Part shown: positions 4,166-60,406 of the stretch, one piece after another | Numbering within the stretch: the first letter of the stretch is position 1 | How the letters are laid out: each line of letters begins with the position of its first letter | From: an uncultured delta proteobacterium | GTDB taxonomy: Bacteria > Desulfobacterota > Binatia > DP-6 | Assembly: GCA_963811605.1 (NCBI GenBank) | Contig: CAWESA010000011.1 | Span: forward strand, 159,698-223,697 | DNA: 64,000 nt | Direction: 5' to 3' | Notes under the pieces: model-generated | Told to the model about the DNA's origin: nothing | Databases searched by the model: none | What the model saw: the letters and a program-made list of their open reading frames with translations, nothing else | Translations under genes and position numbers: made by a program

Positions 4166-4168
4166 CGC

Positions 4169-11709: not shown

Positions 11710-11735
11710 TTCGTCTTCCTCCTGACCTCTCCCGC

Positions 11736-14896: not shown

Positions 14897-14926
14897 TGCC
14901 GCCCGCTGGCAGCACCGCGTCCAGCC

Positions 14927-15859: not shown

Positions 15860-15990
15860 GGCGGCCCGGGACGCAATTTTCTTGCCTGCTGTCGCGTTTT
15901 TCTTGACACGCACACCGGGGCTCGTGGTACCTCGCCCCCGCCAGACCCGGCTCGACTGGACGAGCGGGGCACACCAGAGGGGGGAACCGG

Positions 15991-18550: not shown

Positions 18551-19139
18551 CTACTTCGAGTACTTCACCGAGCAGCCGTACGGCTTGGTCTCGGCCACCG
18601 CCACGGGCTTGCCCGCGGTGATCTCGTCGAGCGCCTCGCCGACGTAGTTGCGCGGGGAGTCGCTCGCGCCGGCGGCGTCATCGTCGATCGCGCCCTGGTA
18701 GACGACCGTGCCCGTCTTGTCGATGACGAACATGTGCGGCGTCGTCCTCGCGCCGTACGCGCCGCCCACGGCGCCCCCGCTGTCATCGAGGATCGGGTAC
18801 TTCATGGCCTGCTCGGCGTGCCAGGCGCGATCCTTGGCCGCGTCCATGTAGCTGGTGCTGTTGACCGCGAGCCACACGACGTCCTTGTCCTTGAAGCGAT
18901 CCGCGAGCGAGCTCATGGTCTTGGCGCGGTAGTGGCGCTGCACGAACGGACAGTCGGGATTCGTCCACTCGAGCACGACGATCTTGCCGCGCAGCTTCGC
19001 GAGGTCGACCTCGCGTCCGTCCTGATCCTTGGCCGTGAACTCCGGGCGCGGGCTGCCCCACGCTCACGGCCGCCCACGATGCGCCCGTCGCGGCAAGAGA
19101 CAGCGCTGCCGCCGCGAGCCACACGCTTCCTCGTGTCAT
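18551..19139 (-). pseudogene. TlpA/ResA-like thioredoxin-family (redoxin) protein with a +1 frameshift
   Basis: Frame A gives signal peptide MTRGSVWLAAAALSLAATGASWAAVSVGQPAP and then goes off-frame. Frame B continues EFTAKDQDGREVDLAKLRGKIVVLEWTNPDCPFVQRHY...HMFVIDKTGTVVYQGAIDDD. The sequence gcgcccgGagttcacggcc carries one extra base, around 19040-19050 on the plus strand. Confidence 0.6.
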
Positions 19140-32707: not shown

Positions 32708-33259
32708 CGTGCGCTCCTGGTTCAGATGACGGCGGCCACGTTCATACTCGCCGGGTCGATCGCGGCCAGCACCTGTCCGTTTCAACGATCCCGCCCCTTG
32801 CAGTCGTGTGGTGCTGCAGATGACTCCGGCATAGGCGGTTGTGGCGAGAGGAGCTTCCTGACGAAGCCGAGCAGCTCCGCGGCCGAGCCGAAGCGTGCGG
32901 CGACACCGGAGGCGATGTGCTCGGCGCGGCCGATGAAGAGGTCGCCGCCTGGGGTGCCCGGCGCCCGGAGCTGGATCACGAAGGCACGGTCGGGTGGAAG
33001 CGGCCCGTCCATGTCCACGACCCACGGTGGGTCGGCGCTGCGGTCGTCGGGTGCCATGGTCTTCCCCCTACCGCCCGAGCGACGCCCCGGTCCGTAAAGA
33101 ACGCGAAGAGTTCGCGTAAAATCGAGACTCCTCGGGGGACCTCAGTCGGGGCGAGGGGCAGGCGATGCGGCGGTCACTCGCCGTCGGATCACCGGGGCCT
33201 GTTGCGGCCCGTTGGAGCAAGCCGCCCGACACGGTATCTAGCCGATCACCCGATCGACC

Positions 33260-40593: not shown

Positions 40594-40990
40594 CAGATGG
40601 TCGAGAATCGCGTCACGCGCATCACGTTGGCCCTTTCGACGATCGCCCGGACCTCGGTCGGTCGAGCTCGGGTCCTAGTACGCGGCGTGTACCAGATCAC
40701 CTGGATGAAGTCGTCGCCTCGTCGTCGCCAGGGTGCGCGATGGGCGCGACGAGAGGCAAGTCGATCGTGGTGGCGCGGCGGCATCGTCACCGAGCTGCGC
40801 TCGCCCACTGTCGCCCGGCCCGCGCCGCGACAGCGTCCACCGGACGCGACGGGCTGTCCGGCGGTGGCGACACTCCCCGCGCGTGCGATGCCCGTGCCGG
40901 CGGGAAACGAGTCGCCCGAGCGTTGGCCGCGCTCTTGCTTGGGGGCCGATCGCTGGGCGTCCTGCCGCACGAGACGCCGGGAGGTATGCG

Positions 40991-43060
40991 ATGGCGGAAT
41001 GGAAGGCCGGTACGCGGCGGCGAGCCCGCTCCTGGTGGCTGCTCCTCGGGCTGGTCCTGGTCGCGCCCGGAGTCGCGGCCGGCCAGGCAACCACCGCCGT
41101 CACGGGACAGTTCGTCGTCTACTGGGTGGACGGCTTCTCGGACGGTGGAAGTCACCCGGCATACCGACTGCGCGAGACGGAGAGCGGCCGCAGCCTCGAG
41201 CTGATATTCGGCACGCCGCCCGCCGACCTGCGCAGCGGTGATCGCGTGGTCCTACACGGTGTCGAGTCTCCCGCCGGCGTCCTCCGCGTGGAGCGCTACG
41301 AACCAGCCGGCGCCGTGGCGGGAACCCCCTTCGCTGCCGCAAGCACGCCCGCCCCGCCCAGCGGCGAGCAACGAACGGCGATCCTGCTTCTCAACTTCCT
41401 CGACGCCACCCTCACCTGCACCACGGCCCAGATCGAGGACCGGCTGTTCGCTGCCGCCGACTCGGTCAGCCACGCATACGCGGAGACGTCGTCCGGCCGC
41501 GTCTGGTTCGGCGGAAAGGCGTTCGGCCCCTTCCTGATCAAGGACCGGCGCTCGGAGCACTGCGACCCGTTCGGCTGGGCGGCGCGGGCCGACCTGCTGG
41601 CCGCCACCTCCGGGATCGACCTGCGCTTCTACCCCCGCCGGCTGTACGTGGTCGCGACCAACCCGTCGTGGTCGTGCGGCTGGGGCGGCATCAGCGAGCT
41701 CGGCGTGACGCCCAGCGCATCCGTCGTCGAGGACTATGGCCGGTGCGGCTACGACCACGTCCACGCCCACGAGCTCGGACACGCCCTCGGCATGAGTCAC
41801 GCGGGCATCGACCCGGGCGACGTGGGCGAGCTCGCCGACGAGTACGGCGACGCCTCCGACTTCATGGGCGGGAGCTACCTCCCTCTCAGCCACACCAACG
41901 CCCCGCACAAGTTCCAGATGGGCTGGGTATCTCCCGAGGCGGCGCCCATCGTCGACCATAACGGGCGCTTTCCCCTCCGCCCGCTGGAGACACCGCTCGA
42001 TTCCCCGTGGTGGCCGGCGATGCTGCGCATCGCCCGGCCGGGATCCGAGGCCGCCTATTTCGTGTCGTTCCGTCGTCGCATCGGGTTCGACGCCAACCTC
42101 GACGACGTGTTCAGCGAGCACACCAGCATCCACCGCTGGGGAAACGACGAGGACGGCGGCCGCACGGCGCTCATCCGCACGCTGGGCGACGACGACACGT
42201 TCGCTGGCCCGGGCTTCGTCGTCTCGCAGCTCGATCGCTCGCCGGGCGGGGCCTTCGTCGAGGTGGCGTTCTCGTGCGAGCCGTTCGCTCCGCGCCTCGA
42301 CGCGTCTGCTCCATCACCGGACGGGCGCTCTCGCCTGCACGTCGACCTGGGGATCCGCAACGACGACACCGCCCTGTGTCCGCCCTCCTCGTTCTCGGTC
42401 GACGCCGTCGGACCGCCCGGCTGGTCGGTCACGGCATCCCCGCCGACGCTGGCGATCGGGGCCAAGGCTCGGGCCACCGCGACGCTGCAGATCGAGATGC
42501 CGGCCGGCACTCCGCCCGGGGCCTACGAGCTCACCGTCGCGGTGGCGGGCGCTGCGAGCACGCAGCACGCGCAGGTCGTGGTCCCGGTTCCGGTCAGCAC
42601 CCTGCCAGGCGGAGGGGGCGGGGGCGGTCAGCCCGGCGACGGCGGAGACGGCGGAAGCGGCGGGGGCGACTCCGAGGAGTGCACCGCCGCCTCGATCGCC
42701 CCGCTCGACCGTGCCCGCTGCCTCACCGCCCGGTTGCTCGCCGACGGTCCGTGCGCAGCGGACGGGTTGCGGCACACCGTCGCGGGGCGCCTGCGCAGGG
42801 ACGTCGAGACACTCGACCGTCTGCTCGGGAAGATCGCGCGGGCGAGTCGGCGGCGCGCTCACGTTCTCGCCGGGCGCGCCGCGAGGCTCGCGAACGGCCT
42901 GATGCGCTTCGTGCGCCGGCAGTCGGAGCGGAGGCGGATACCGGCGACATGCGCCAACCCCACGATAGCGACGGTCAATCAGCTTCGGCCGCTGCTTCAG
43001 GGCTTCGGGTCGGGAACGGCGAAGTCGGATCGAAGCGGCCCGGCGGGGTCGGGCGGCTAG
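40991..43060 (+). CDS. secreted zinc metalloprotease, M11 (gametolysin)-like metzincin, with Gly-rich linker and C-terminal helical domain
   Basis: Start MAEWKAG at 40991. Signal peptide WWLLLGLVLVAPGVAAG. Zinc site HAHELGHALGMSH (HExxHxxGxxH). Linker GGGGGGQPGDGGDGGSGGGD. The 775-aa ORF call includes an upstream artefact. Confidence 0.7.
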   Translation: MAEWKAGTRRRARSWWLLLGLVLVAPGVAAGQATTAVTGQFVVYWVDGFSDGGSHPAYRLRETESGRSLELIFGTPPADLRSGDRVVLHGVESPAGVLRVERYEPAGAVAGTPFAAASTPAPPSGEQRTAILLLNFLDATLTCTTAQIEDRLFAAADSVSHAYAETSSGRVWFGGKAFGPFLIKDRRSEHCDPFGWAARADLLAATSGIDLRFYPRRLYVVATNPSWSCGWGGISELGVTPSASVVEDYGRCGYDHVHAHELGHALGMSHAGIDPGDVGELADEYGDASDFMGGSYLPLSHTNAPHKFQMGWVSPEAAPIVDHNGRFPLRPLETPLDSPWWPAMLRIARPGSEAAYFVSFRRRIGFDANLDDVFSEHTSIHRWGNDEDGGRTALIRTLGDDDTFAGPGFVVSQLDRSPGGAFVEVAFSCEPFAPRLDASAPSPDGRSRLHVDLGIRNDDTALCPPSSFSVDAVGPPGWSVTASPPTLAIGAKARATATLQIEMPAGTPPGAYELTVAVAGAASTQHAQVVVPVPVSTLPGGGGGGGQPGDGGDGGSGGGDSEECTAASIAPLDRARCLTARLLADGPCAADGLRHTVAGRLRRDVETLDRLLGKIARASRRRAHVLAGRAARLANGLMRFVRRQSERRRIPATCANPTIATVNQLRPLLQGFGSGTAKSDRSGPAGSGG

Positions 43061-49182: not shown

Positions 49183-50010
49183 TCACTCGGGTCGCAGGAT
49201 GATGTCGAGGAGCCGCAGCGTCATGCCCCCCGTGTAGTCGATGGTCGCTCCGTTGAACCACCCGCCCTCGTCACGCGCAAGGAACCCGACGATGCGGCCG
49301 ACGTCCTCGAACGTGCACGAGCGACCGGCCGGGATCATCTCGCGGACCGACGCCTCGAGCCGCGCGACGCCGGCGGGGCCGAGCATGCGCGCCAGGGCCG
49401 GCGTGACGACGGAGCCGAACTTGAGCAGGTTGACGCGATGGCCGTACGGTCCGAGCTCGAGCGCGAGGTGCCGCACGTACATCTGGAGGGCGGCCTTCGC
49501 CGCCGCGATCAGACCACAGTTGTGGAGCAGGGAGTCGTGCAGGAGGTTGGTCAGCCCGAGGAGCCGGGCCCCCGGCGCGAGGAGGTCGAGCGCGTGGAGC
49601 GCCCGTGCCCAGTACACGAAGGAATGCGCGAGGTAGTTGAACGTCTTCTCGAACTGCCGGGGATGGAGCTCCGCGCCCTCGGTGGCGAGAAAGTGTCCGA
49701 GCGACGCGCCACTCAGCGCGTGCACCATGAGCGCGACGCTGCGAGGCCCGGCCACCTCGCGGAGGCGCGTCGCGCCGGCGAGCGCACCGTCCGCATCGCC
49801 CGCATCGCCGATGTGCATGGCGACCCGGCGGCCGGTGGCACGCACCTCGTCCTCGAGGGCCCTGGCCTCGTCGGCGAAATGACCCCGGTGGATGCCGTAG
49901 ACGTGCAACCCGGGATCACGCGCCACGGCCCGGGCGATGGCCGCGCCGGTGCCGGTCGACGCCCCGAGGATGAGCGCCCACCGTGCGCCGCCGTCCTCAG
50001 GCTGCGTCAT
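49183..50010 (-). CDS. short-chain dehydrogenase/reductase (SDR; enoyl-reductase-like, atypical)
   Basis: ALILGASTGTGAAIARAV (Gly-rich NAD(P)-binding motif). 275 aa. Start MTQPEDGG mapped to 50010. Confidence 0.75.
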   Translation of the reverse strand: MTQPEDGGARWALILGASTGTGAAIARAVARDPGLHVYGIHRGHFADEARALEDEVRATGRRVAMHIGDAGDADGALAGATRLREVAGPRSVALMVHALSGASLGHFLATEGAELHPRQFEKTFNYLAHSFVYWARALHALDLLAPGARLLGLTNLLHDSLLHNCGLIAAAKAALQMYVRHLALELGPYGHRVNLLKFGSVVTPALARMLGPAGVARLEASVREMIPAGRSCTFEDVGRIVGFLARDEGGWFNGATIDYTGGMTLRLLDIILRPE

Positions 50011-50782
50011 GCCGTCGCGTGTCCTCCGTCGCCCCGGGACCCCCTCCACGCGCACGGTCGAGCAGCTCCTGCACGGCGCCCTGGACGACGCCGTGGAGGC
50101 GCAGCAGGCCCGGGCGGTCGTCGAGAGCGATGTCCCCGTCGCGACGGGGATCGATGGGCTCGCCGACGAGCTGCCGCATGCGGACGGGAAAGGGCGGCGA
50201 GAGCGGGTAGGGTCCGAGCGGACCGAGACCGAGCCACGGAAGCCAACTCCAGTCGCGCGGCAGCCCGAGCCGCCGCCCGAGCCGATCGGCGTCGTTGAGC
50301 CCGATGTACGCCCCGTCGGCGCCCGCCGCCGCCACCGGGACGATGGGCAGCCGGTGGCGCAGCGCGAGGCGGAGATAGCCGACGCGGCCTCCCCAGTCGA
50401 CGCGATAGCGGCTCCGGAGGCCGCGGCATCCCTCGCGCGCACCGCCGGGGGTCACCATGATGTGCTCGCCACGCGCCACGGCCCGGGCAACGTCGTCGTC
50501 GTCGCCGGTCAGGAAGCCGAGGCCGTCGACCAGCCATCGCAGCACCGGAAGCTGCTTCATCCCCCGATGCACGAAGCCGTGCGGCAGGTAGCCCAGCCGC
50601 TCGTAGAGGGCCACGGTGAGCATGCACATGTCGTACGCGAACGGACGCCCGTGGTAGCCGACGATCAGCGCCGCGCATGCACCGTCGAGGTGCGCGAGCC
50701 CTTCCACGGTGTAGCGGTGATAGCGCCGGAGCACTCGCCAGTACGCCAGCCAGAGACGCAGCGGGACCCGGCTCGCCGCCAT
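49997..50782 (-). CDS. lysophospholipid acyltransferase (PlsC/LPLAT family)
   Basis: Acyltransferase motifs VGYHGRPFAYDM (motif I-like) and HIMVTPGGAREG (motif III-like). The start overlaps the upstream gene's stop (ATGA at 50780-50784). The 3' end overlaps the SDR start by 14 nt. Confidence 0.7.
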   Translation of the reverse strand: MAASRVPLRLWLAYWRVLRRYHRYTVEGLAHLDGACAALIVGYHGRPFAYDMCMLTVALYERLGYLPHGFVHRGMKQLPVLRWLVDGLGFLTGDDDDVARAVARGEHIMVTPGGAREGCRGLRSRYRVDWGGRVGYLRLALRHRLPIVPVAAAGADGAYIGLNDADRLGRRLGLPRDWSWLPWLGLGPLGPYPLSPPFPVRMRQLVGEPIDPRRDGDIALDDRPGLLRLHGVVQGAVQELLDRARGGGPGATEDTRRHDAA

Positions 50783-51774
50783 CACGCCGCCCGGAGGAGC
50801 GTCGCCCCCGAGGAGAGGCCCGCACCCACGCCGACCATGAGGATGCGATCGCCGGCACGGACGCGCCCGGAGGACATCAGCCGGTCGAGGCTGATCGGGA
50901 TCGAGGCCGCACCCACGCTGCCGGTCTCGTGGACCACGGGGACGACCCGCTCCGCGGCGACGCCGAGCGTGCGCACGAACGCGTCCAGCATGACGCCGTT
51001 CGGCTGATGCGGCAGGACCCACTCGACGTCGGCGAGGCGCAGTCCCGCCTGCGCGAGCACCGTGTCGGTGCTGTCCCGCACGAGCTCGAGCGCGAGGTCG
51101 AGCATGCGCGCATTCGGCTTCGTGAAGCGAATCGTCTCGCGTGTCGCGGTGTGCCCTGGATGAGCGAGCGTCACCCCGCCGGCGTTTCCCGGCTCGTTCC
51201 GCAGGACGGAGCCGAGGATGCCCTCGCCGTCCCGACCTTCCGTCACGATGACGGCCGCGGCCCCGTCTCCGAAGACGAAGAACGGCCGCGGATCGTCGGG
51301 CGTGATGAATCGCGATCCGAGCTCCGCAACGACGATCGCGACGGCTTGCTGTCCCGTGGCCACCCCGCGCGCCGCGACGTCGAGGGCCGAGAGGAAGCCC
51401 AGGCAGGCGTTGTTCAGGTCGAAGCAGTCGCAGCCATGCGTGATCCCGAGCGCACCCATGACGTCGTTGGCCGTCGCGGGAATCAGCCGGTCGCCGCCGA
51501 GCGAGTCGACGAAGATGATGCGCGTCAACGCGTCGGCCGGCAGGCGGGCGGCGTCGAGCGCGATCCGCAGCGCGGCGGCGCCGAGCCCGGCTGCGGTGGT
51601 GCCGGGCGCGACGAAGTGCCGCACCGCGATGCCGGTGCGAGTCTCGATGCGCGCCGCGTCCCACGTTCCCGGCACCTGCGCGACCAGCTCTGCGGTCGTG
51701 ACGGACCGCTCGGGCATGACGCTGCCGGTTCCGGCGATGCGCACGCAGAGTCCCGTCTTTCTGCGGTCGGTCAC
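50782..51774 (-). CDS. 3-oxoacyl-ACP synthase III (FabH-like KAS III)
   Basis: 330 aa. MPERSVTTAELVAQ... Active-site Cys region DLNNACLGFLSAL. HQPNGVMLD and VHETGSVGAASIPISL (His/Asn triad region). Confidence 0.85.
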   Translation of the reverse strand: MTDRRKTGLCVRIAGTGSVMPERSVTTAELVAQVPGTWDAARIETRTGIAVRHFVAPGTTAAGLGAAALRIALDAARLPADALTRIIFVDSLGGDRLIPATANDVMGALGITHGCDCFDLNNACLGFLSALDVAARGVATGQQAVAIVVAELGSRFITPDDPRPFFVFGDGAAAVIVTEGRDGEGILGSVLRNEPGNAGGVTLAHPGHTATRETIRFTKPNARMLDLALELVRDSTDTVLAQAGLRLADVEWVLPHQPNGVMLDAFVRTLGVAAERVVPVVHETGSVGAASIPISLDRLMSSGRVRAGDRILMVGVGAGLSSGATLLRAA

Positions 51775-51892
51775 AGCGCGCTTGCTCTACCGCCCGGTAG
51801 ACAGCGGGGTCAACCTCCTGGACGAGCACCGTCTTGCCTTCCCCCCGTCGCACACGCTGGCGTATAAGCATCGCGCGACGAGCCCGACGCCG

Positions 51893-54715
51893 ATGAATCC
51901 GCTGCCGATCGATCCGTGGGATTTCGAGCTGCCCGAGTACCTTCGTCGGGTCGGCGTTGCCCCGAGCGATCTCCATCCGCACTACGCCACCCTCGACCCG
52001 CTGCGCGACTTCGGCGATCGATACTACCAGGACGATCGGCACATCACGGGGGCGGCGCTGCCGCTCCATCCGCTCCTCGGCACCGAGACGCAGCGGGCGG
52101 TCTACGCCGTCCTGTCGGGCATGCACGACTGGCCCTCGGGCACGCGGTTCACCGAGCTGGACACGAGCACGGACCCGGCGATCCACCTCCTCATCCGGGG
52201 TCGCGCCCGGCTCGTCGCCACGCTGTGCGCGACCGGGACGGTGCGCCGGTGGGTGGTCGCGCAGTACCGGACCGGGCAATGGATCGGCCTGCCCCGCCTG
52301 CTCCGCGAGTACGATCGCACCGCGCGCCCGTGCGCGGAGTGGCCCGACGGACGCGTCCGTCTCGAGGTGGAGGCGCTGGGTCCCGTGCGCACCCAGTGCC
52401 TGCGCCTCGACGATGCCCTCTCGCTCGTGCGCACCTCGTCGGACTTCCGTCGTTTCGTCGAGCACCACGTGGCGGTGCGCTTCGCCCGGCGGCGTGAGGT
52501 GCTCCGGCGTCTGGACGCGAATCCGCTCTTGCGCCTCTTGAACCCGGCCGACCGCGAGTATCTGCTCCAGCTCGGCGCCATCGTCGCGGTCGGGAACGAC
52601 GTCTCCGCGCCCTATCTTGCCTCCGGACCCCCCGCGCGCCGGGCCGCGCTCCTGCTCCGGGGAGAAGGCGGGCTGCTCGTGTCCGGCACGGGAGACGTGC
52701 GCCGCTACGGCGCCGCGCTCCGCCCCGGAGACCTCGTCGGTCACGAGGGTCTGGTGATGGACGCCGAGCTTCAGAGCCCGCCTGCGGACCGCTTCGACAT
52801 CGTCGAGCCGCCTCGCACGACCGAGGTACGGCTCGCGCCCGGGACACAGCTGCTGCAGTTCTACTGGTACGCGCTGCGCTGGGTGCTGGACGATCGAGCC
52901 TCGGTGTGGGAGCGGGTGAAGCGCATCATGTCGGGCGATCCCGCCGACATCACCGCGCCGATGCCGACCATCGTCAGCTTCCACGCTGGCCGCGCGGGAC
53001 TCGGCACCACCCTCCTGGCGTACGGCACCGGCGCCGAGCTCGCGCGCGCGGGGAGCCGGTCCGTCTCCGTGATCGACCTGCAGGGCCCGGAGAACTTCAC
53101 GGCGCGCTGGAAGGATCGCGGCTTCGCGGTGAAGGATGCCGCCATCCCCCTCCAGGTCGGCCCGCGCATGCTGCGCGCGGAAGGACGTCGCACCACGCTC
53201 GACTGCCATGTCCTGGTGCCGCCGTCGGACGCCGCGTGGCCAACGGGACTGGAGATCGCGTGGCCGGTGGCCACCGACCCGGACGCCGTCGAGGACCTCG
53301 TGGACGCCCTCGAGATGCGGGAGGACGTCAGCCACGTCGTCGTGGCGGGAAGCGGCGCCGAACCGCACGGCCTCATGAGCCAGGTGCTCGACCGGCTCCA
53401 TGGTCGCTGCAGCGCGGTGTTCTGGGTGTCCGACGACGGGGCCGCCGCCTACCCGCGGGCCGAGCCGGAGCACCTCACGTGGGTCTACCGCATGACGCCC
53501 GCGTACCGGGCCTCCGAGGCGCGCCAGGCGAGACGCGTCTGGTTCGACTGGCTCTTCGCCGGGGTGATCGACGCCACCTCGACCCCCGTGCACGATGCGA
53601 TCGAGAGCCTGCTCGGCTACAGCCCCGGCTCGGAGCTGGAGCGCGAGTCGGTCGAGGGGCCCCGGCGAACGGTCCGGGTCCCGGACGATCCGATCGGCGC
53701 CCGGATGTTCGATCAGGGTGGACTCGGGACGCTCGTGGGCCCGGATGCGCAGCGCCTCCCGCTGGGACGCGCCGTGGGGCGGCTGGCCCGCGTCGTCGAC
53801 CGACGGACGGTGGGCCTGGCGCTGGGCGGCGGAGGCGCATGGGGATTCTCCCACGTTGCCCTCCTCCGCAACCTGGAAGCGCAGGGCGTTCCGATCGACT
53901 ATATCGCGGGCACCTCGTTCGGTGCGGTGGTGGGCGGCCTCTACGCGGCCGGCGGCATGCCGGCCCTGGAGCGCCTCGTGGACGAGAACTCGGCGACGAG
54001 CCCGGGGATCGGCTCGTCGCTCCGCGCGATCGTCACGGGCAGCCTGAACCGGGCCCTGTTCATCGCTCCGCTCTCGTCGGCGGCGGTGGAGACCTTCGTG
54101 CACGGTGAGCTGCGCGCCGTCGGCGCCGGCGATCCGCCCTGCCTGGGCACGACGGAGATTCCCTTCTATCCCGTCGGCACCAACCTCGGCACGCATGAGC
54201 CCCTCGCCCTGCCGCACGCGACGGTGGGCTGGGGCGTGCGCATGTCGGGGAGTCTCCCGCCGATCTTCCCGACACTCCTGCGAGGCGACGACCGCGTCGC
54301 CGACGGCGCCTTCATCGCCAACGTGCCGTCGCGCGTTGTGCGCGAGATGGGAGCGCACTTCGTGATCGCGGCCAACGTCGTGCCGCCGCCGCCCACGTCC
54401 ACGCCGCCCAGCTTCGACCCGAGGAGCCTCGCGACCTGGCTGCCGCGCAGGCTCGTCGAGCGGCTCGAGGACTCGGTACGCGGCCTCTTCGTGCTCGCGT
54501 GGAAGGCGGGCCAGGACCAGGGCGCGCTGGCGGCCGACTACCGCCTCGATCTCCGTCCGACGGTGGCAAACCTGTTCGAGATGTGGCGCGGGCGCGACAT
54601 CGTGGAGGAGATCGAGGCCAAGCACTTCACGGGCGCGAACGAGCCGCGGATTCGCCACGCCTGGGACCGCTTCCGCGGAAACGGCGCGCGGCGAGCCCGC
54701 TGGACGGTCGACTGA
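51893..54715 (+). CDS. NTE-like phospholipase: cyclic-nucleotide-binding-like domains + patatin domain
   Basis: 941 aa. cNMP-binding-like segments (GAALRPGDLVGHEGLVMD and others). Patatin motifs LALGGGGAWGFSHVALLRNLEAQGVPIDYIAGTSFGAVVGGLYAAG (GGGxxG...GxSxG) and the catalytic Asp region DGAFIANVP. Confidence 0.8.
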   Translation: MNPLPIDPWDFELPEYLRRVGVAPSDLHPHYATLDPLRDFGDRYYQDDRHITGAALPLHPLLGTETQRAVYAVLSGMHDWPSGTRFTELDTSTDPAIHLLIRGRARLVATLCATGTVRRWVVAQYRTGQWIGLPRLLREYDRTARPCAEWPDGRVRLEVEALGPVRTQCLRLDDALSLVRTSSDFRRFVEHHVAVRFARRREVLRRLDANPLLRLLNPADREYLLQLGAIVAVGNDVSAPYLASGPPARRAALLLRGEGGLLVSGTGDVRRYGAALRPGDLVGHEGLVMDAELQSPPADRFDIVEPPRTTEVRLAPGTQLLQFYWYALRWVLDDRASVWERVKRIMSGDPADITAPMPTIVSFHAGRAGLGTTLLAYGTGAELARAGSRSVSVIDLQGPENFTARWKDRGFAVKDAAIPLQVGPRMLRAEGRRTTLDCHVLVPPSDAAWPTGLEIAWPVATDPDAVEDLVDALEMREDVSHVVVAGSGAEPHGLMSQVLDRLHGRCSAVFWVSDDGAAAYPRAEPEHLTWVYRMTPAYRASEARQARRVWFDWLFAGVIDATSTPVHDAIESLLGYSPGSELERESVEGPRRTVRVPDDPIGARMFDQGGLGTLVGPDAQRLPLGRAVGRLARVVDRRTVGLALGGGGAWGFSHVALLRNLEAQGVPIDYIAGTSFGAVVGGLYAAGGMPALERLVDENSATSPGIGSSLRAIVTGSLNRALFIAPLSSAAVETFVHGELRAVGAGDPPCLGTTEIPFYPVGTNLGTHEPLALPHATVGWGVRMSGSLPPIFPTLLRGDDRVADGAFIANVPSRVVREMGAHFVIAANVVPPPPTSTPPSFDPRSLATWLPRRLVERLEDSVRGLFVLAWKAGQDQGALAADYRLDLRPTVANLFEMWRGRDIVEEIEAKHFTGANEPRIRHAWDRFRGNGARRARWTVD

Positions 54716-55595
54716 CGTCGCACCGACGACGCGGGAGACGTGACGTCTCCCGCGAGATCGTGTCACGGAGCTCCGACAAGAGGCGCCGGTTGTCGAGGTG
54801 CCGCCACGGATGGAAATCCGGCCGATGATAGGCGGCGATGGCGCGCCATCCACCCCGCAGCACGCCGCCACGCCCGAAGACAAAGCGGAGGAGGCGTCGT
54901 CCCGCGTGGAGGTCCCGCGCCGCGCCCGCGCTGGCAAGGATGCGGTACGAGACCGACGGGACCGCGAGGGCGACGAGCACGACGGCGATCCACAGGCCGG
55001 CGATGCGAACGGCGTAGGTGTAGAGCCCGTGGCCGCGGACAGCGTGGAACGCGTCGAAGAGCACCGCCTTGTGCTCCACCTCCTCGTAGCCGTGCCACCG
55101 GAACAGGCGGGCGATGCGCGGGTCGACGTCGTCGAGCAGCTCGGACCGCGAGAGGATCACGTTGCCGAGCTCGCCGAGGAAGTGCTCTCCTGCGATGGCG
55201 ACGGCGCTCCTGAGATCGCTCGAGGTCCAGTCGACGATGGCGAGCCATCGCAGGACGGAATCGGCGGCGGCGTCGGTCGGCACGCCCCACCGCATGAGCA
55301 CCCGGTTGAACGCGGCGTGCATGTTGGCGTGCGCCGCCTCCTGGCGAAGGAAGGCATCGACCTCTGCGCGCGACCCCGCTTCGGCGATGCGCGGCAGGAG
55401 GCGACGGGCATCGTCGATGACGAAGACCTCCACCACCGGCGCGAGCACCGAGAGCGCCTCGAGAAACGCCGTGGGCCCGATGCCGGCCGGATGCCAGGCG
55501 CGCGGCACTTCGTGCTCGAGGCCATCGAAGTCGAAGCCGGGCCGCCTCGGCGTCACGGTGATGCCAAGCCTGCGGGTGGAGGTCGAATCCGACAT
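54627..55595 (-). CDS. predicted metal-dependent hydrolase (PF10118-like)
   Basis: FLRQEAAHANMHAAFN and WHGYEEVEHKAVLFDAFH match the E..H / EE.EHK signature. Start MSDSTST at 55595. The basic tail overlaps the convergent patatin gene by 89 nt, so the 3' end is uncertain. Confidence 0.6.
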   Translation of the reverse strand: MSDSTSTRRLGITVTPRRPGFDFDGLEHEVPRAWHPAGIGPTAFLEALSVLAPVVEVFVIDDARRLLPRIAEAGSRAEVDAFLRQEAAHANMHAAFNRVLMRWGVPTDAAADSVLRWLAIVDWTSSDLRSAVAIAGEHFLGELGNVILSRSELLDDVDPRIARLFRWHGYEEVEHKAVLFDAFHAVRGHGLYTYAVRIAGLWIAVVLVALAVPSVSYRILASAGAARDLHAGRRLLRFVFGRGGVLRGGWRAIAAYHRPDFHPWRHLDNRRLLSELRDTISRETSRLPRRRCDVSRPSSGLAARRFRGSGPRRGESAARSRP

Positions 55596-55693: not shown

Positions 55694-56794
55694 TCATTCG
55701 GCGGGACGCCACACACCGATGCGGTCGTCGAAGACGGCGCCGAGATAGAACCGGCCGTCGAGCTCTGCCGCCGAGGCGACGGCTCCGACGAGCTGCCCGT
55801 CGTGCCGGAGCAGCACCGTCGTGTCGAGCGTCATCGGATCGATCTCGACGATCGACCACGCGCTGCGGCACGGACGAGCGACCAGGCACGCGAGGAGCCC
55901 GGCGTCCCCCGTGTGAACGCCCGCGAGGAGCGTCTTGCGGGAGCTCCAGGAGAGATTGTCCGGATGGCCGCCCGTGGGGGCGACGTCGGGCACGACTCCG
56001 GCGGGAAGACTTGCGAGTGGCAGGCGGGCGACCCGCCCCGCGCCTGTCTCGGCATAGAAGAGCGTCGTCCCGTCGGGCGACACGGCGACGCCGTTCGCAC
56101 CGGCGGCCGAGGTGCCGGGCACGTGGTGCCAGCCCTCGCCCGCGCGCCACACGATCACGTCGCCCGTCGGCCACCCGAGTCCGGAGCGCACCATGTGGTA
56201 GGCGCCTCGCAGCCCGCTCATGGTCGGCTGGAAATTCGACACGACGACGTCGCCGGCGAGCGTGAGCACGACGTCGTTACCCACTTCGTCGGGCGGCAGC
56301 GGGACGCAGCCACGCCAGGTGAGCCGGGCCAGGTTGCCGGTCCCCACCAGGTCGAAGAGCTCGACCGCCTCCCGCACTCCGTGGCCGACGGCAGCGATGT
56401 GCACGAGCCCGCGCACGGTGGTCTGCACCGACGCGATTCCATGCGGGGCGAAGCCGTCCGACGGCGGCGGAGCGGTGCAGGTGGGATCGCCAGCCGGTGG
56501 TCCCGCGCCCACGTCGCGCCCGGTGTCACCCGTCGGCCAGAGCGGGCGGGGCGTGGTGAGCGGCGGGACGAGCGTGACGAGTCGACCTCCGGCACCGTCG
56601 CGCCCACGCATCTCGCTCACGATGAGCAGCCCGGCCGCCGGCACCGCCTCGACGTCTTCGGGGTTGGTGAACCCGCAGATCGTCCCGAGGCTCCCGAGCG
56701 GAGGCACGGGCTCACACGCACCGCGGAGATGCGAGTCGCAACCGAGGGTGAGGACGACGAGCGGAAGAAGGGTTGGCCAGAGGCGACGCCGCAT
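55694..56794 (-). CDS. lipoprotein with an SGL/arylesterase-like beta-propeller
   Basis: Lipobox LVVLTLGCDS. Propeller-like repeats (PDGTTLFYAETGAGRV, GANGVAVSPDG). Confidence 0.55.
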   Translation of the reverse strand: MRRRLWPTLLPLVVLTLGCDSHLRGACEPVPPLGSLGTICGFTNPEDVEAVPAAGLLIVSEMRGRDGAGGRLVTLVPPLTTPRPLWPTGDTGRDVGAGPPAGDPTCTAPPPSDGFAPHGIASVQTTVRGLVHIAAVGHGVREAVELFDLVGTGNLARLTWRGCVPLPPDEVGNDVVLTLAGDVVVSNFQPTMSGLRGAYHMVRSGLGWPTGDVIVWRAGEGWHHVPGTSAAGANGVAVSPDGTTLFYAETGAGRVARLPLASLPAGVVPDVAPTGGHPDNLSWSSRKTLLAGVHTGDAGLLACLVARPCRSAWSIVEIDPMTLDTTVLLRHDGQLVGAVASAAELDGRFYLGAVFDDRIGVWRPAE

Positions 56795-57003
56795 CGTGTG
56801 CGCCGAACAGACTCCCGGGGGGCGGTGCGACGCAAGAGACAGGCCCCGGGGCGGTGACGCGGCGAGTCGGATGGCACCCCCGACGAAAGACAGCTCGACG
56901 GCACTTTTGGTTTCACGCCGCGTCGGCCCCGTGGTAGCCCCTCTCGTGCCGTCCGGATCTGCAGCTCCGCGCGGACACGAAGAGCGGCGGCTCGGGAGCG
57001 CTG

Positions 57004-60000
57004 ATGTCGAACAGCTGGAAGACGGTGATCGGCCTCTTGATCCTCTGTTCCGCGCCGCCGGCCGCGCGCGGCGCCGGGCCGCTCTGCCCCGCGGGCGAGA
57101 GCACCCTCGGCCCCGGAACGCTGCACGCCATCCGTCGTGGCGCCGGCGCGGGCAAGGTGACGAGCACGCACGCGACCTTCGTCCTCCCGACCGGCATCGC
57201 GATCGTTCCGGACGGCCAACCGCTCGTGTTCGCGATCGAGGCCGACCGTCACCCGATCGGGAAGGTCACGCTGGACGCCGGCGCCCTCGTCTCCTACCGG
57301 GGCGGGAAGCACTTCGCGTACCGCAACGGCGCGTCGAGACTGTCTCTCGGCCATGCGCGTGGCGGCTACCGGCTGGCGGCGACCTTCGACGACTTCGATC
57401 TGACGGCCCTCGATCTCGTCCACCCGCCGCGGTTCATGAAGCAGATCCTGAAGATCGGCGACGCCTGCTTCTCCTCCGTGCTGGCATGCACCGGCAAGCC
57501 GAAGGGGGTCGTGTGCAAGCCCGAGCGCACCGTGTTGCTGGCCGGGCGCGTCGAGCGATCGGGGCACGTGCCGCTGTCCGGGACGATGGTGACCCTGATC
57601 GACGACCAGCGCCTCGAAACCGTCTCGGTCTTCGCCAAGGAGGACGGGCGCTACGTGTTTCCGCGCCAGCGTCCCGGGACCTACAGGCTGCGGGCGCGGC
57701 TCATCGGCTACGAGGACGCGGTGCAGCCCGACGTGGTGGTGGCGAAGAACCGTGCGACGCGCGTCGCGTTCACGATGGTGCCGACCGCGAACACGAACGA
57801 CCAGCTCCCCGCGAGCGCCTGGTTCTCGCTCATCCTCGACAAGTGGCCGGATCCCAAGATCCGCGGAGACTTCACGCTCTCGTGCGGCAACTGCCATCAG
57901 ATCGCCAGCTACCGCTTCCGGCGCGCCAAGACCGAGGAGCAGTGGCGCAGCGTCCTGACGCGCATGATGACGAACCTGCCGCCATACTTCCAGGAGACGC
58001 GCGAGCTCCTGGTCAAGAACGTGATCGATACCTACGGACCGAACGCCACCTATCCTACCCTGCCGATCCCGCCGCCGCCGTCGGGCGACGTCCTGAACGC
58101 CGTCATCTACGAGTACATCCTCGGCACTCAGACCAGCAGCCCCGGCTGCCACGACCTCGAGCTCGGGGCCGACGACCGCGTGTACGCGGACGCCGGCTTG
58201 CGCTGGATCGATCCGCGCACGAGCGAGCGCGGCGTGTACCCGTTCGTCGGCGGCTCGCACTCCATCGAGCGGGGCCCGGACGGCAACATGTGGATCACGC
58301 AGGCGGGCAGTGACAGCCTCGCCGAGGTCTATGTCGACGGATCCGCTCCGCGCTACTTCTCGCTGCCGAGGATCGGAGACGACCAGGGTGCATATCCCCA
58401 CACGCTGCGCTTCAACTCCCAGCATCAGATATGGATGACCATGACGAAGTCGAACCACATCGCGCTGTTCGACCCGCCGACGGCGGCGTGGACCTACCAC
58501 CGCTTGCCGGAGGCGGACCCTGCCGAGGTGGGCCTATCCATCCCGGTCGCGTATGGCTGCGACACCGCACCCGACGACACCGTCTGGTGGTCGCAGCTCT
58601 TCGGCGACCGCATCGGACACTATGACCCTGCCACCGACACCCTGAAGGCCTGGCGGCCTCCCTTCTACGGGCCGCGGCGACTCGCCGCGGATCAGGACGG
58701 CATCGCCTGGGTTCCCGGCTACGGCTCCGGCGTGCTCGGCCGCTTCGACCCGACGACCGAGCGCTGGAAAGTCTACCCCATGCCCACCGGGATTCCCGGC
58801 CCGCCGGGCTTCGGAACCTCGGAGACGCCCTACAACCTGAACGCCAACCGGCAGACCGGCCAGGTGTGGATCAACGGCTCCAATTCCGACACCCTGATTC
58901 GCTACGACCCGCAGAGCGCGCGCTTCACGGCCTTTCCGCTCCCGACTCGCGCCAGCTTCACCCGCGAGATCGAGTTCGACGCGGACAACAACGTCTGGAC
59001 CTGTACCTCCAACGAGCCGCCGGGGCCGGACGAGCGCGGGCAAGGCAAATTCGTGAAGCTCGAGCTGCCGCCGCCGGGCGCCGAATGCGGCAACGGCCGG
59101 CTCGAGCTGGGCGAGGAATGCGACGACGGCAACGCGACCGACTGCGACGGGTGCAGCACGGACTGCCGCGCCGAGACCGGATGCGGCGACGGCGTGCGCT
59201 GCGGCGGCGAGCAGTGCGACGACGGCAACACCGACGACTGCGACGGGTGCTCGGCGACGTGTCATGGCGAGACCGGTCTTCTCTGCGGCGACGGGATCGT
59301 CAACACGGACTGCGGCGAGGAGTGCGAGCCGCCCGGGGCAGCGGGATGCAGCCTCCAGTGCGCGTACGTGGTCGGCTGCGGCAACGGCATCGTCGAGGCC
59401 GGCGAGGCGTGTGACGACGGGAACACCGACGAGTGCGACGGGTGCACGTCGAAGTGCACCGTCACCGCGGGCTGCGGCGACGGCGTCCGCTGCGGGTCCG
59501 AGGAGTGCGATGACGGCAACACGACGAGCTGCGACGGCTGCTCGAGCATGTGCGTCAAGGAGGAAGGGGCCATCTGCGGCGATGGCGTCGTGAACTCGAC
59601 CTGCGGCGAGGAGTGCGATCCGCCCCAGCCGGGAACGTGCGCATACAACTGCCGCACGGGCGCCGCGACGCCGCTCGGAACTCGCCACTTCTCGTTCGGC
59701 GGGGCTCTCTACTCCTCCGCACTGGGCACCGGTGTGCCGCTCGGGCTCCCCGCGGGTGCCCTCGACCTCGCGGCCGATGCTCCGGATGCCGCCGGGAGCG
59801 CGACCGTCAGCGTCGCCGGTCCGGTGTACTTCAGCATCCCGATCCTCGACGGCGCGTTCGGCTACTTCTGCGGCCGGATCTCGTCGTGCACCGGTCACGT
59901 CTACTGCAACGGCGGGCCGCCCGCCGACGTGCTCGTCGAGCAGGACAGCGCCGGGCCTGGCCGCCAGGGAAACCCCGTCATCACCACCACGGGTCTCGGC

Positions 60001-60315
60001 TCCGACAGCGGGCCGGGCACCGTCGTCCTCACGTGCGATCAGTCGACGATCCAGGTGAGTCCGCCGGCACCCGACTGCACGACGCAGGCCTATCCTGCCG
60101 ATCAGCCGTTGGTGTACACGAGCGGGTCGGTGACCGGCGACTACCTCAACGGCGACCCACGCATCGGCAACGGGCAGATCACGGTCGCGGGCGAGCCCTT
60201 CGTCTGTGCGCAGTGGACGATCGAAGACGGCCCGGGAATCCTCGCGGGCTCGTTCCTCCAGGAGGCGGATCCGCAGGCCGGGGACACGGCGAACGGCCTG
60301 CGGCTCGACGACTGA
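57004..60315 (+). CDS. large secreted multidomain protein: carboxypeptidase-regulatory-like domain + single CxxCH haem-binding motif + Vgb-lyase-like beta-propeller + six Myxococcus-type Cys-rich repeats + C-terminal domain
   Basis: Signal peptide MSNSWKTVIGLLILCSAPPAARG. CarbopepD_reg-like LLAGRVERSGHVPLSGTMVTLIDDQRLETVSVFAKEDGRYVF. LSCGNCHQIASY. Propeller repeats (GPDGNMWITQAGSDSLAEV; IWMTMTKSNHIALFDP; TVWWSQLFGDRIGHYDP; GIAWVPGYGSGVLGRFDP; QVWINGSNSDTLIRYDP; NNVWTCTS). Repeats CGNGRLELGEECDDGNATDCDGCSTDC (x6). Confidence 0.8.
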   Translation: MSNSWKTVIGLLILCSAPPAARGAGPLCPAGESTLGPGTLHAIRRGAGAGKVTSTHATFVLPTGIAIVPDGQPLVFAIEADRHPIGKVTLDAGALVSYRGGKHFAYRNGASRLSLGHARGGYRLAATFDDFDLTALDLVHPPRFMKQILKIGDACFSSVLACTGKPKGVVCKPERTVLLAGRVERSGHVPLSGTMVTLIDDQRLETVSVFAKEDGRYVFPRQRPGTYRLRARLIGYEDAVQPDVVVAKNRATRVAFTMVPTANTNDQLPASAWFSLILDKWPDPKIRGDFTLSCGNCHQIASYRFRRAKTEEQWRSVLTRMMTNLPPYFQETRELLVKNVIDTYGPNATYPTLPIPPPPSGDVLNAVIYEYILGTQTSSPGCHDLELGADDRVYADAGLRWIDPRTSERGVYPFVGGSHSIERGPDGNMWITQAGSDSLAEVYVDGSAPRYFSLPRIGDDQGAYPHTLRFNSQHQIWMTMTKSNHIALFDPPTAAWTYHRLPEADPAEVGLSIPVAYGCDTAPDDTVWWSQLFGDRIGHYDPATDTLKAWRPPFYGPRRLAADQDGIAWVPGYGSGVLGRFDPTTERWKVYPMPTGIPGPPGFGTSETPYNLNANRQTGQVWINGSNSDTLIRYDPQSARFTAFPLPTRASFTREIEFDADNNVWTCTSNEPPGPDERGQGKFVKLELPPPGAECGNGRLELGEECDDGNATDCDGCSTDCRAETGCGDGVRCGGEQCDDGNTDDCDGCSATCHGETGLLCGDGIVNTDCGEECEPPGAAGCSLQCAYVVGCGNGIVEAGEACDDGNTDECDGCTSKCTVTAGCGDGVRCGSEECDDGNTTSCDGCSSMCVKEEGAICGDGVVNSTCGEECDPPQPGTCAYNCRTGAATPLGTRHFSFGGALYSSALGTGVPLGLPAGALDLAADAPDAAGSATVSVAGPVYFSIPILDGAFGYFCGRISSCTGHVYCNGGPPADVLVEQDSAGPGRQGNPVITTTGLGSDSGPGTVVLTCDQSTIQVSPPAPDCTTQAYPADQPLVYTSGSVTGDYLNGDPRIGNGQITVAGEPFVCAQWTIEDGPGILAGSFLQEADPQAGDTANGLRLDD
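59080..59640 (+). repeat. six in-frame tandem ~90-100 nt coding repeats (CGDG...CDDGN...CDGCS..C)
   Basis: Recurring tgcggcgacggc....gagtgcgacgacggcaac.....tgcgacgggtgc units seen directly in the sequence. Confidence 0.7.
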
Positions 60316-60406
60316 ATCCGCGTCGGACTGCCGGCGATTCCTCCTGGCGCGCCGGGCGCCCGGCGTCCACCGCCACGTGGACACGCCGAACCGGGGGCAC
60401 TGCCCT

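Follow-up and report, generated by a model that had tools for sequence, protein, structure and literature searches.

The window, the whole 64-kb stretch of DNA that was analysed, carries on its forward strand a complete open reading frame (57004..60315, +) encoding 1103 aa plus a stop codon, with a GC3 of 0.91, as is usual for coding frames in the window. Full-length orthologues of its product were found on six MAG contigs, at 52-89% identity. The protein begins with a Sec-type signal peptide, read by inspection (aa 1-23; 57004..57072, +; MSNSWKTVIGLLILCSAPPAARG followed by AGPLCPAGE), with a basic n-region, a hydrophobic core and a cleavage site of the form A-x-G/A. This layout is kept in four orthologues (L004, L005, L006 and L008); a lipobox is unlikely, since Cys15 is not conserved. 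The signal peptide is followed by a lineage-specific domain (aa 24-172; 57073..57519, +), which found no match in Pfam and NCBIfam searches and gave just nine database hits, five of them of 160 aa or less. Four carry a CarboxypepD_reg domain, which also lies downstream of this domain in the window protein. The domain is missing in orthologue L007 and in the ~550-aa core family described below. Neither of these two features appeared in an earlier note on this DNA, made from the sequence alone.

Next comes a CarboxypepD_reg beta-sandwich (aa ~176-262; 57529..57789, +), which the earlier note had recognised as carboxypeptidase-regulatory-like and which an HMM search confirmed (PF13620, E 5.6e-13, aa 180-258). 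In the AF2 model it spans core residues 8-87 and comprises seven strands. The modelled core of three domains, CarboxypepD_reg, cytochrome c and propeller, reached a pLDDT of 92.7 and a pTM of 0.93.

The predicted haem c domain

The second domain of the core is a divergent c-type cytochrome domain of ~80 aa (aa ~264-345; 57793..58038, +), built of five helices in the AF2 model (core residues 93-173). Exactly one CxxCH occurs in the whole protein, as had been noted before, and it lies here: the haem c attachment motif C294-G-N-C297-H298 (CGNCH, aa 294-298; 57883..57897, +). All homologues in which this region is covered, more than 100 of them and down to 34% identity, carry the motif, and among diverse family representatives chosen at 50% identity its C, C and H are each found in 72/72. 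By chance, 0.034 CxxCH motifs would be expected in the whole protein and 0.003 in aa 1-690; what decides the matter is the conservation rather than this figure. The earlier note had allowed that the motif might be coincidental if it were not conserved in orthologues. It is kept there and in distant homologues, within a cytochrome-related domain, so a coincidental motif is not supported and the lone CGNCH is, as far as sequence can tell, a genuine predicted haem-c site. His298 would be the proximal ligand, and Met321 (57964..57966, +) is the candidate distal ligand: it is Met in 74/75 diverse representatives, and in the 1jju_A alignment it falls on the Met of 'TVTRM'. Trp314 is likewise kept, in 69/72 representatives.

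In sequence, the haem segment comes closest to the alpha haem domain of quinohaemoprotein amine dehydrogenase, QH-AmDH (1jju_A / 1pby; PF09098). A profile of the segment matched 1jju_A at E 1.2e-5, with both the CxxCH and '...W..v..RM' aligned, the common pattern being C-x-x-C-H ... R(K)T..(D/E)W...V..RM; weaker matches included the cytochromes ScyA and SorB. The window segment itself scored 12.8 bits against PF09098, under the Pfam gathering threshold of 25.2 bits. When 24 single members were searched, c-type cytochrome Pfams dominated the match list with weak matches (MCR 15/24, Cytochrome_CBB3 12/24, Dehyd-heme_bind 6/24 and Cytochrom_C 4/24), and unrelated families were scattered through it, with one or two members each; six of the 24 scored weakly against PF09098. 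QH-AmDH carries two such haem domains, N-terminal in a subunit of a CTQ-dependent enzyme complex, whereas the window protein has a single copy between a beta-sandwich and a propeller.

The propeller and its conserved ring

The propeller (aa ~366-690; 58099..59073, +) is of the Vgb/NHL type. Its match to Vgb_lyase (PF24684, 67.7 bits against a cut-off of 50) bears out the earlier assignment to a Vgb-lyase-type propeller, and in Foldseek the propeller is best matched by two Vgb lyases, 2z2n and 2qc5 (E 1e-18, 15-17% identity), with a TM of 0.88 normalised to the target and an rmsd of 2.6 Å. The family profile also matched the lyase PAL (3fvz_A, E 4.6e-6) and, weakly, regucalcin; the best match of the SGL family was 14 bits, below its Pfam threshold of 26.3. 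The earlier count of six blades did not hold. By our count and assignment from the DSSP list of the AF2 model, 27 strands follow the cytochrome domain, which fits seven blades of four strands plus an N-terminal closing strand (aa 367-372, closing blade 7) and therefore indicates seven blades. A count of motifs yields six because the W-x-T/S motif is missing from blade 1 (aa ~383-411). The Vgb active site is described on blades 6 and 7 (PMC8916777), so Vgb too has at least seven blades.

Alignment A1 and the diverse representatives revealed a conserved ring on the propeller, a putative active or cofactor site (58150..58968, +), made up of H383/D384, H419/S420, Y464-P-H466, Y517, R558/R559, Y610 and R654/E655. 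These residues are invariant or nearly so in alignment A1. Among the diverse representatives the His are kept in 71/78 (H383), 57/78 (H419) and 67/78 (H466), the Tyr in 70/80 (Y517) and 71/78 (Y610), and the Arg in 74/80 (R558), 72/80 (R559) and 71/75 (R654). In the modelled strands, every one of them is among the first residues of its blade's innermost strand, the three His on the consecutive blades 1-3, and the ring would thus be expected from the model to cluster in space and line the mouth of the channel. No known cofactor-binding signature was recognised in the protein. In about six of ~72 representatives the ring is degenerate while the haem motif is retained, which suggests that the haem can function without the ring.

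The window protein and Vgb (2z2n / 2z2p / 2qc5) have the same propeller fold and repeat motif, and by our mapping of motifs their functional residues lie at innermost-strand starts on the same face. In Vgb, conserved polar residues on blades 6-7 hold the substrate and Mg2+ (PMC8916777), and the ring appears to occupy the same kind of position. Vgb is a cytoplasmic, single-domain Mg2+ lyase of 300 aa; the window propeller, unlike it, belongs to an exported chain that also contains a beta-sandwich and a cytochrome c domain. The catalytic His/Glu of Vgb are on blades 6-7; by the HMM register, the window protein has Arg, Thr and Tyr in their place, and its own conserved His are on blades 1-3. PAL, with an NHL-type propeller like that of the window protein, places at its channel an active site of one Tyr, one Arg and three Zn-binding His, similar in make-up to the His3/Tyr/Arg set of the ring. 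Unlike the window protein, PAL has six blades and His ligands on non-adjacent blades, is non-redox and has no haem domain.

C-terminal modules, family and gene neighbourhoods

Downstream of the propeller are six Cys-rich acidic repeats (aa 695-886; 59086..59661, +), identified before as Myxococcus-type and now as bona fide members of the DUF4215 / myxo_disulf_rpt repeats (TIGR02232, E 1.4e-30; PF13948, E 6e-14). They are a duplicated triplet, A-B-C/A-B-C, whose halves share 59% aa and 72% nt identity. In most matches elsewhere, such repeats stand beside other domains or alone. The protein ends in an all-beta domain with six Cys (aa 887-1103; 59662..60312, +), modelled by AF2 with 13 strands (pLDDT 93.2, pTM 0.89). 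Pfam and NCBIfam searches with these ~217 aa gave no match, in line with the earlier mention of about 230 aa of unknown sequence. Foldseek in the PDB gave no fold match (best E 0.011, TM <= 0.36), and the best match in BFVD was at E 0.11. The domain occurs only at the C-terminus of the sub-family of the window protein. In our reading, the repeat stalk and this domain would act as a spacer with a module for anchoring or binding.

The order CarboxypepD_reg, cytochrome c, Vgb-like propeller, over ~550 aa, recurs in several bacterial phyla and constitutes a large, widespread and uncharacterised cytochrome c-propeller family, which databases name by its flanking domains only. The N-terminal domain, the disulphide-rich stalk with its six Cys repeats and the new C-terminal beta domain are additions of a Binatia-like lineage. 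The earlier note had called the protein unusual, which holds for the lineage-specific repeat and C-terminal elaboration and does not hold for the core. A different elaboration, an extra C-terminal cytochrome c domain, is found in 9/120 homologues; in homologue P0101 it matches TIGR02603 (E 2.5e-26).

Gene neighbourhoods are heterogeneous across family members. In the window the gene has unrelated neighbours (a GH15 enzyme, a glycosyltransferase and a metal hydrolase); the 30 ORFs scanned there include no ccm gene, and no other cytochrome c gene was seen in the 64 kb. The window also encodes several other Cys-rich, eukaryote-like extracellular proteins, among whose domains are Disintegrin, TSP3 and CEMIP. 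In a related genome (L013), CcmE, CcmF and CcmH are encoded 3-6 kb upstream of the orthologue, and ACIII and complex IV are encoded in all Binatota genomes analysed (PMC8262859). Together with the invariant motif in its cytochrome-related domain, the ccm genes near the L013 orthologue and the conserved Sec signal argue, at the level of sequence, for the exported redox-active protein that had been proposed. Furthermore, a c-type cytochrome gene lies within ~1 kb at 4/10 unrelated family loci: a CCP_MauG in L014, its homologues in L016 and L019, and an overlapping small cytochrome c in L015. Dehydrogenase genes also adjoin family members, with a PQQ enzyme 2 bp downstream in an apparent operon (L003), a PQQ_2 dehydrogenase also in an apparent operon (L019), and a third apparent operon of a GMC oxidoreductase, a 208-aa ORF and the family member, whose stops and starts overlap (L018). 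Some of the co-location may be due to chance, because PQQ-repeat proteins are common in these phyla. Neither in the window nor at the orthologous loci is there an adjoining dehydrogenase gene, and the only conserved neighbour in the closest orthologues encodes an SGL-like lipoprotein.

Proposed function and its alternatives

Taken together, we consider it about an even chance (a probability of roughly 0.5) that the gene product is a Sec-exported, multi-domain c-type cytochrome-propeller protein with a putative haem-c redox module; its role is probably electron transfer outside the cytoplasm rather than antibiotic lyase activity. The protein would leave the cytoplasm via the Sec pathway, for a final location in the periplasm or at the cell surface, and a cytochrome c maturation system would link haem covalently to Cys294 and Cys297. 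The result would be a low-spin haem with His298 and Met321 as axial ligands inside the helical domain, held between the beta-sandwich and the seven-bladed propeller. The ring at the channel mouth, made of three each of His, Tyr and Arg with one Asp and one Glu, differs from the Vgb lyase site; what it binds is most likely a metal, an anionic substrate or some organic cofactor. Single electrons could then travel through the haem, in one direction or the other, linking other periplasmic c-type cytochromes with the ring or with a dehydrogenase docked as a partner; cytochrome cd1 and the quinohaemoprotein dehydrogenases are built on the same principle.

The protein might instead combine two functions, a tentative reading that we hold possible but less likely: the cytochrome would be an electron acceptor or mediator for neighbouring periplasmic PQQ/GMC dehydrogenases, and the propeller a non-redox, metal-dependent lactonase/lyase-type hydrolase handling their lactone or ester product, with haem and ring electronically uncoupled. 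The characterised members of the Vgb/SGL/NHL superfamily are mostly non-redox lyases and lactonases, and the Vgb_lyase match, the weak SGL score, the PAL and regucalcin matches, the dehydrogenases in L003, L018 and L019, the members with haem motif and degenerate ring and the SGL-like lipoprotein are all consistent with such a division of labour. However, all three domains invariably occur in one chain and in one order, and the model shows them as a single rigid body (the pTM of 0.93), which exceeds what co-localisation of a pathway would require; the catalytic residues of Vgb are not kept, SGL stays below threshold, and the window and orthologue loci have no adjoining dehydrogenase. It is unlikely that the protein is mainly a non-catalytic surface or matrix component, whose propeller, repeats and C-terminal domain would attach to the cell envelope or to a ligand, with the haem serving as a redox or gas sensor or as a structural cofactor. 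DUF4215 repeats are a typical feature of secreted proteins of myxobacteria and have also been found in a diatom adhesive-trail protein (bioRxiv 10.1101/2023.03.06.531300), other Cys-rich extracellular proteins are encoded in the window, and the C-terminal domain has no enzymatic signature. Yet the ancient conserved unit is the haem with the ring-bearing propeller, the repeats and C-terminal domain being lineage-specific, and a strictly conserved polar ring of His/Tyr/Arg/Asp where the channel opens is what one sees in catalysis or in the binding of a cofactor, not in adhesion.

Kinship with the lactonase-type (clade III) nitrous-oxide reductase L-NosZ, or with another copper-cluster propeller enzyme, is very improbable. 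Cytochrome genes are reported near clade III nosZ loci (PMC13477213), the three invariant His lie on consecutive blades, and homologue P0101 weakly matches the L-NosZ model NF052460 (E 0.0019); that match, however, scores 16.8 bits against a cut-off of 700 and covers ~85 residues only, and the window protein has no NF052460 match at E <= 1. Just three ring positions are His and a CuA-type domain is absent, whereas the CuZ site requires seven His ligands. Least probable of all is a streptogramin-B (Vgb-type) lyase with a coincidental CxxCH, a candidate suggested in part by the earlier note and refuted as far as the sequence goes. The Pfam match and the structural similarity speak for it; against it stand the universal conservation of the CxxCH and Met, the 15-17% identity, and NCBIfam Vgb(A)/(B) scores of 34.9 and 33.6 bits against a 600-bit cut-off. 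Additionally, the residues that we take to be catalytic in Vgb, H228, E268 and H270, are replaced in the HMM register by R558, T608 and Y610.

The preferred reading of an exported cytochrome-propeller redox protein has parallels in known enzymes. Cytochrome cd1 nitrite reductase and the type II quinohaemoprotein alcohol dehydrogenases also join a mono-haem cytochrome c domain and a propeller in one chain, place a catalytic cofactor at the central channel, and are exported and wired to periplasmic cytochromes. Their propellers have eight blades, belong to families unrelated to that of the window protein and hold haem d1 or PQQ/Ca2+. Neither a relationship in sequence nor a d1 or PQQ signature was seen in the window protein, and the likeness is one of analogy, not of membership. 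No homology was detected either to CcPDH, a fungal extracellular quinohaemoprotein pyranose dehydrogenase, which consists of an AA8 cytochrome, an AA12 PQQ propeller and a CBM1 (PMC4332668). CcPDH has haem b rather than haem c and a six-bladed, sGDH-like propeller, and it is eukaryotic. As secreted proteins, both would share a three-part logic of haem domain, catalytic propeller and C-terminal binding module.

Domain layout and predicted export of the protein

The target gene, 57004-60315 (+), encodes 1103 aa, and its GC3 of 0.91 is typical of the real genes in the window, which has a G+C content of ~70%. Very long ORFs that overlap real genes, whether antisense to them or in another frame, such as 49997-54937 (-), 56220-58313 (+) and 58534-60384 (-), are artefacts of this ~70% G+C and not genes. 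An exact-sequence look-up of the target protein in public assemblies returned no record. Its closest orthologues, at 52-89% identity, come from "uncultured delta proteobacterium" and Candidatus Binatia MAGs. Three of the orthologous genes are broken by changes of frame (L005, ~10372-10398; L008, ~11620-11880; L009, 10717-11018), which we suspect to be assembly errors rather than signs of pseudogenes.

HMM searches placed both domain types named in an earlier note, made from the sequence alone, above their Pfam thresholds: CarboxypepD_reg (PF13620) at aa 180-258 (E 5.6e-13; 49.5 bits against a gathering threshold of 32.3) and the Vgb_lyase repeat (PF24684) in the propeller (67.7 bits against a cut-off of 50). 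The six Cys-rich repeats that it described were recovered as six units at aa 695-886, with 5-6 Cys each, matching DUF4215/myxo_disulf_rpt PF13948 (52.5 bits against 27) and the NCBIfam Myxococcus cysteine-rich repeat TIGR02232 (E 1.4e-30; 104.8 bits against 20.8). These units form an A-B-C triplet that has been duplicated, the halves being 59% identical at the amino acid level. As the note had it, the protein contains exactly one CxxCH, namely CGNCH at aa 294-298 (nt 57883-57897). The note's overall description was accurate, apart from the number of propeller blades and from a signal peptide and a 150-aa N-terminal domain that it overlooked.

Inspection of the N-termini shows a signal of the Sec type, with a putative cleavage site (A-x-G/A) ahead of "PLCPAGE", in the target and in its orthologues at L004, L005, L006 and L008. 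The sequence "LLILC" was considered as a lipobox and rejected, since Cys15 is not kept in the orthologues and Leu at -1 is non-canonical. The N-terminal domain that follows (aa 24-172) has only nine database matches, five of them of <=160 aa; in four of the nine, CarboxypepD_reg lies downstream, as in the target.

At the other end of the protein, the C-terminal domain (aa 887-1103, 217 aa) occurs only at the C-terminus of the target's sub-family. Its AF2 model is all-beta with 13 strands (pLDDT 93.2) and gave no significant structural match in the PDB (best E 0.011, TM <= 0.36) or in BFVD; going by the model, the domain may represent a new fold. The insignificant matches were mostly membrane beta-barrels. 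An outer-membrane or autotransporter beta-barrel was nevertheless rejected as unsupported, given TM values <= 0.38, six Cys and few aromatic residues; the weak and uneven amphipathicity of the strands and the last residue, Asp in place of Phe or Trp, also speak against it. We read the Cys repeats and the C-terminal domain as a putative stalk and a module that would anchor the protein or bind a partner.

The probable haem c segment and the ring of the propeller

Judged from conservation and profile comparison, the lone CxxCH is very probably a genuine haem c site. A search with the core of the protein (aa 175-690) yielded 367 proteins, and the pattern F..xCxxCHQxG...[FW]R......[DE]W..v..RM was found in every match covering the region, down to 34% identity. 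Myxococcota, Binatia, Planctomycetota, Limisphaerales, Nitrospirae and Hydrogenedentota are among the taxon names attached to these matches by their sources. Searching 1.84 billion representatives exhaustively with HMMER, and then aligning with hmmalign, gave a more diverse homologue set; the 1972 proteins found at E <= 1e-30 are inflated by giant CarboxypepD_reg-repeat proteins and do not measure the size of the family. Among the aligned representatives, the Cys, Cys and His of the haem motif were each kept in 72/72, Trp314 was kept in 69/72, and the position of Met321 was Met in 74/75. From composition, 0.003 CxxCH motifs would be expected by chance in aa 1-690.

Furthermore, a profile of the ~105-aa segment around the motif, compared with PDB sequences, matched the haem domain of 1jju_A, the alpha subunit of quinohaemoprotein amine dehydrogenase (QH-AmDH), at E 1.2e-5, with the CxxCH and the Met of "RKTPEGWdmTVTRM" in 1jju_A lining up with those of the family; the cytochromes ScyA and SorB were among the weaker matches. 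His298 and Met321 would be the axial haem ligands. The earlier note had held that a CxxCH not kept in orthologues would mark the motif as coincidental; with the motif in every covering homologue and in all 72 representatives, it is clearly kept. Pfam models do not reach the segment: that of the target scored 12.8 bits with PF09098 (cut-off 25.2), and single family members gave sub-threshold matches throughout, in the main to families of cytochromes (PF13442, PF00034, PF18509), with a few scattered over unrelated ones.

An AF2 model of aa 172-692, run with 69 homologues, was obtained with pLDDT 92.7 and pTM 0.93. In this model a seven-strand beta-sandwich is followed by five helices and then by 27 beta-strands, with the CxxCH at the end of the third helix, so that the order proposed in the note, with the motif between the carboxypeptidase-regulatory-like domain and the blades, is preserved. 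We assign the 27 predicted strands to seven four-stranded blades, closed by an N-terminal strand at aa 367-372. The note had counted six, because blade 1 lacks the W-x-T/S motif. The best structural matches of the core model were the virginiamycin B (streptogramin B) lyases (Vgb) 2z2n and 2qc5 (E 1e-18, TM 0.88 normalised to the target, rmsd 2.6 A), at a sequence identity of 15-17%. The active site of Vgb is placed on blades 6 and 7 (PMC8916777), and Vgb therefore has at least seven blades.

The invariant alignment columns of the propeller fall on the first residues of each blade's innermost strand: H383/D384, H419/S420, Y464-P-H466, Y517, R558/R559, Y610 and R654/E655. Residues of this ring were kept at 73-95% in the diverse representatives. 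They would cluster around the mouth of the central channel, on its "top" side, and our own mapping of the repeat motif puts the substrate and Mg2+ of Vgb at the same kind of position. With three each of His, Tyr and Arg besides a single Asp and a single Glu, the ring has a make-up that suggests binding of a metal, an organic cofactor or an anionic substrate.

Redox gene neighbourhoods and competing readings

Several features of the family concern its redox surroundings. An extra C-terminal cytochrome c domain was present in 9 of 120 homologues, that of the homologue P0101 matching TIGR02603 at E 2.5e-26, and a c-type cytochrome gene lay within ~1 kb at 4/10 non-orthologous family loci. At L014 a di-haem CCP_MauG protein is encoded 164 bp downstream of the cytochrome-propeller gene, mono-haem relatives of this cytochrome are found at L016 and L019, and at L015 a small Cytochrome_CBB3-type gene overlaps the stop codon of the cytochrome-propeller gene. 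Dehydrogenase-type neighbours include a PQQ enzyme 2 bp downstream of the family gene in an apparent operon at L003, a PQQ_2 gene with a sulfatase and the family gene in another at L019, and, in a Nitrospirae MAG (L018, 3429-7758), a GMC oxidoreductase, a 208-aa ORF without a family and the family gene, joined by overlapping stops and starts into an apparent operon. This last layout is reminiscent of the three-subunit flavoprotein-cytochrome c dehydrogenases. Taken together, the neighbouring cytochromes and dehydrogenases and the extra cytochrome domains argue for a role in periplasmic electron transfer, in a pattern that is not universal and that is absent around the window gene itself.

The related cytochromes adjoining these genes in three unrelated contigs (L014, 9877-11232; L016, 10610-11278 (-); L019, 8774-10015) resemble the C-terminal half of CCP/MauG and have the motif "...YVNRMP...LIKLP.G...Y..FK.F...VG.C..CH" in common; the one at L019 also has a CarboxypepD_reg domain in the same chain. 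Next to the target, a divergent lipoprotein gene at 55694-56794 (-), with an "LTLGC" lipobox and a weak SMP-30/gluconolactonase-like propeller match (E 6e-4), is the sole neighbour common to target and orthologues, and only at the two closest loci, L004 and L005. Family neighbours being otherwise heterogeneous, a conserved operon around the window gene was rejected.

Both alternative complex III (ACIII) and complex IV need c-type cytochromes. No ccm or ccs genes were found among the 30 window ORFs scanned, nor ccm genes in the orthologous loci L004-L009. On the 656-kb contig of a relative (L013), CcmE, CcmF and CcmH are encoded 3-6 kb upstream of the target's orthologue. ACIII and complex IV are reported to be encoded by all Binatota genomes analysed (PMC8262859). 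The CcmE/CcmF/CcmH genes of L013 and, farther upstream, an exosortase (EpsH) gene and an XrtH-associated gene lie at 2153-5303 and 701-1808, and the orthologue there is annotated as two separate genes (P0026 and P0128), with a frameshift or a real split as the probable cause.

We favour, at a probability of about 0.5, the reading that the target is exported and serves as a redox module, its haem c passing electrons between periplasmic cytochromes and either the site at the ring or a dehydrogenase docked to the protein. The ring is compatible with, and no proof of, a redox cofactor held in the propeller as in cytochrome cd1 nitrite reductase or quinohaemoprotein alcohol dehydrogenase, to which the likeness is a functional analogy only. 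The main competing explanation assigns the cytochrome to adjacent dehydrogenases and makes the propeller a non-redox hydrolase of lactonase or lyase type. This is the usual chemistry of the superfamily, and about six family members with a degenerate ring still keep the haem; we consider it plausible on these grounds and, on balance, doubtful. That the protein sits at the surface without a catalytic function, its haem being a sensor, is distinctly unlikely. The lyase identity suggested in the earlier note fares worse than the fold and repeat, which stand (67.7 bits, TM 0.88): the target scored 34.9 and 33.6 bits with the NCBIfam Vgb(A)/Vgb(B) models against a cut-off of 600, and other family members were likewise below it. 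Taking the catalytic and Mg2+-binding residues of Vgb to be His228, Glu268 and His270, the HMM register aligns them with R558, T608 and Y610, and the catalytic set was not reproduced in either register checked (HMM or blade-for-blade), the register among repeats being ambiguous. Since the ring residues differ from the catalytic ones, the protein is Vgb-like in fold and no Vgb lyase, and a true Vgb lyase with a chance CxxCH is hardly credible. A copper enzyme resembling the clade III lactonase-type nitrous-oxide reductase L-NosZ is also very improbable and was rejected: the target had no match to NF052460 at E <= 1, and P0101 reached 16.8 bits against a cut-off of 700.

Cytochrome cd1 and the quinohaemoprotein dehydrogenases already embody the principle of haem c combined with a propeller. 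The present scaffold, which joins a Vgb/NHL propeller with a new residue ring to a QH-AmDH-like haem domain placed here after CarboxypepD_reg, is undescribed; no NCBIfam or Pfam model covers the cytochrome segment or the fused family, and no paper that describes a cytochrome/Vgb-lyase combination turned up in full-text literature searches. More tentatively, the family might be a new class of exported haem-c-dependent enzymes, with an undescribed redox centre in the propeller (a metal or organic cofactor in the His3/Asp/Tyr3/Arg3 ring) wired through the mono-haem domain to periplasmic cytochromes; in the Binatia-like lineage, a disulphide-rich stalk tipped by a new-fold domain would display the enzyme.

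A lone CxxCH would normally be dismissed, and public annotation of the family mostly names flanking domains only ("carboxypeptidase regulatory-like domain-containing protein", "virginiamycin B lyase family protein", "streptogramin lyase"). Should our reading hold, many environmental bacteria of several phyla, as named by the sources, carry a cytochrome c domain missed by Pfam and fused to a lyase/lactonase-type propeller with a rebuilt active site, and a misleading annotation suggestive of antibiotic resistance would be corrected. The few redox enzymes that pair haem c with a propeller would also gain a new scaffold, and the ring, the haem ligands and the adjacent cytochromes and dehydrogenases would offer a defined target in the search for a new extracytoplasmic reaction, both in uncultured Binatia and in groups to which the hit records refer, such as Planctomycetota, Limisphaerales, Nitrospirae, Hydrogenedentota and Myxococcota.

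Other genes in the window

Two further ORFs, both without a Pfam match, have a single CxxCH: 2771-4165 (+), with CSACH at aa 458 of 465, and 9620-11353 (+), with CSDCH at aa 235 of 578. The gene at 12403-14841 (+) encodes 812 aa with a PDZ domain and a C-terminal thioredoxin/AhpC-TSA-like domain, and another peroxiredoxin is encoded at 18551-19063 (-). Eukaryote-like extracellular domains occur in a 1527-aa CEMIP beta-helix protein (28484-33067 (-)), a protein with TSP type-3 and DUF4114 domains (36629-38113 (+)) and a gametolysin-type M11 peptidase with an NPCBM-associated domain (40709-43060 (+)). Additionally, the adjacent ORFs at 14888-15859 (+) and 15907-18465 (+) contain eukaryote-type Disintegrin domains (PF00200), in five copies in the latter (E 4e-61); these are unusual for a bacterium and enlarge the window's set of Cys-rich extracellular proteins.
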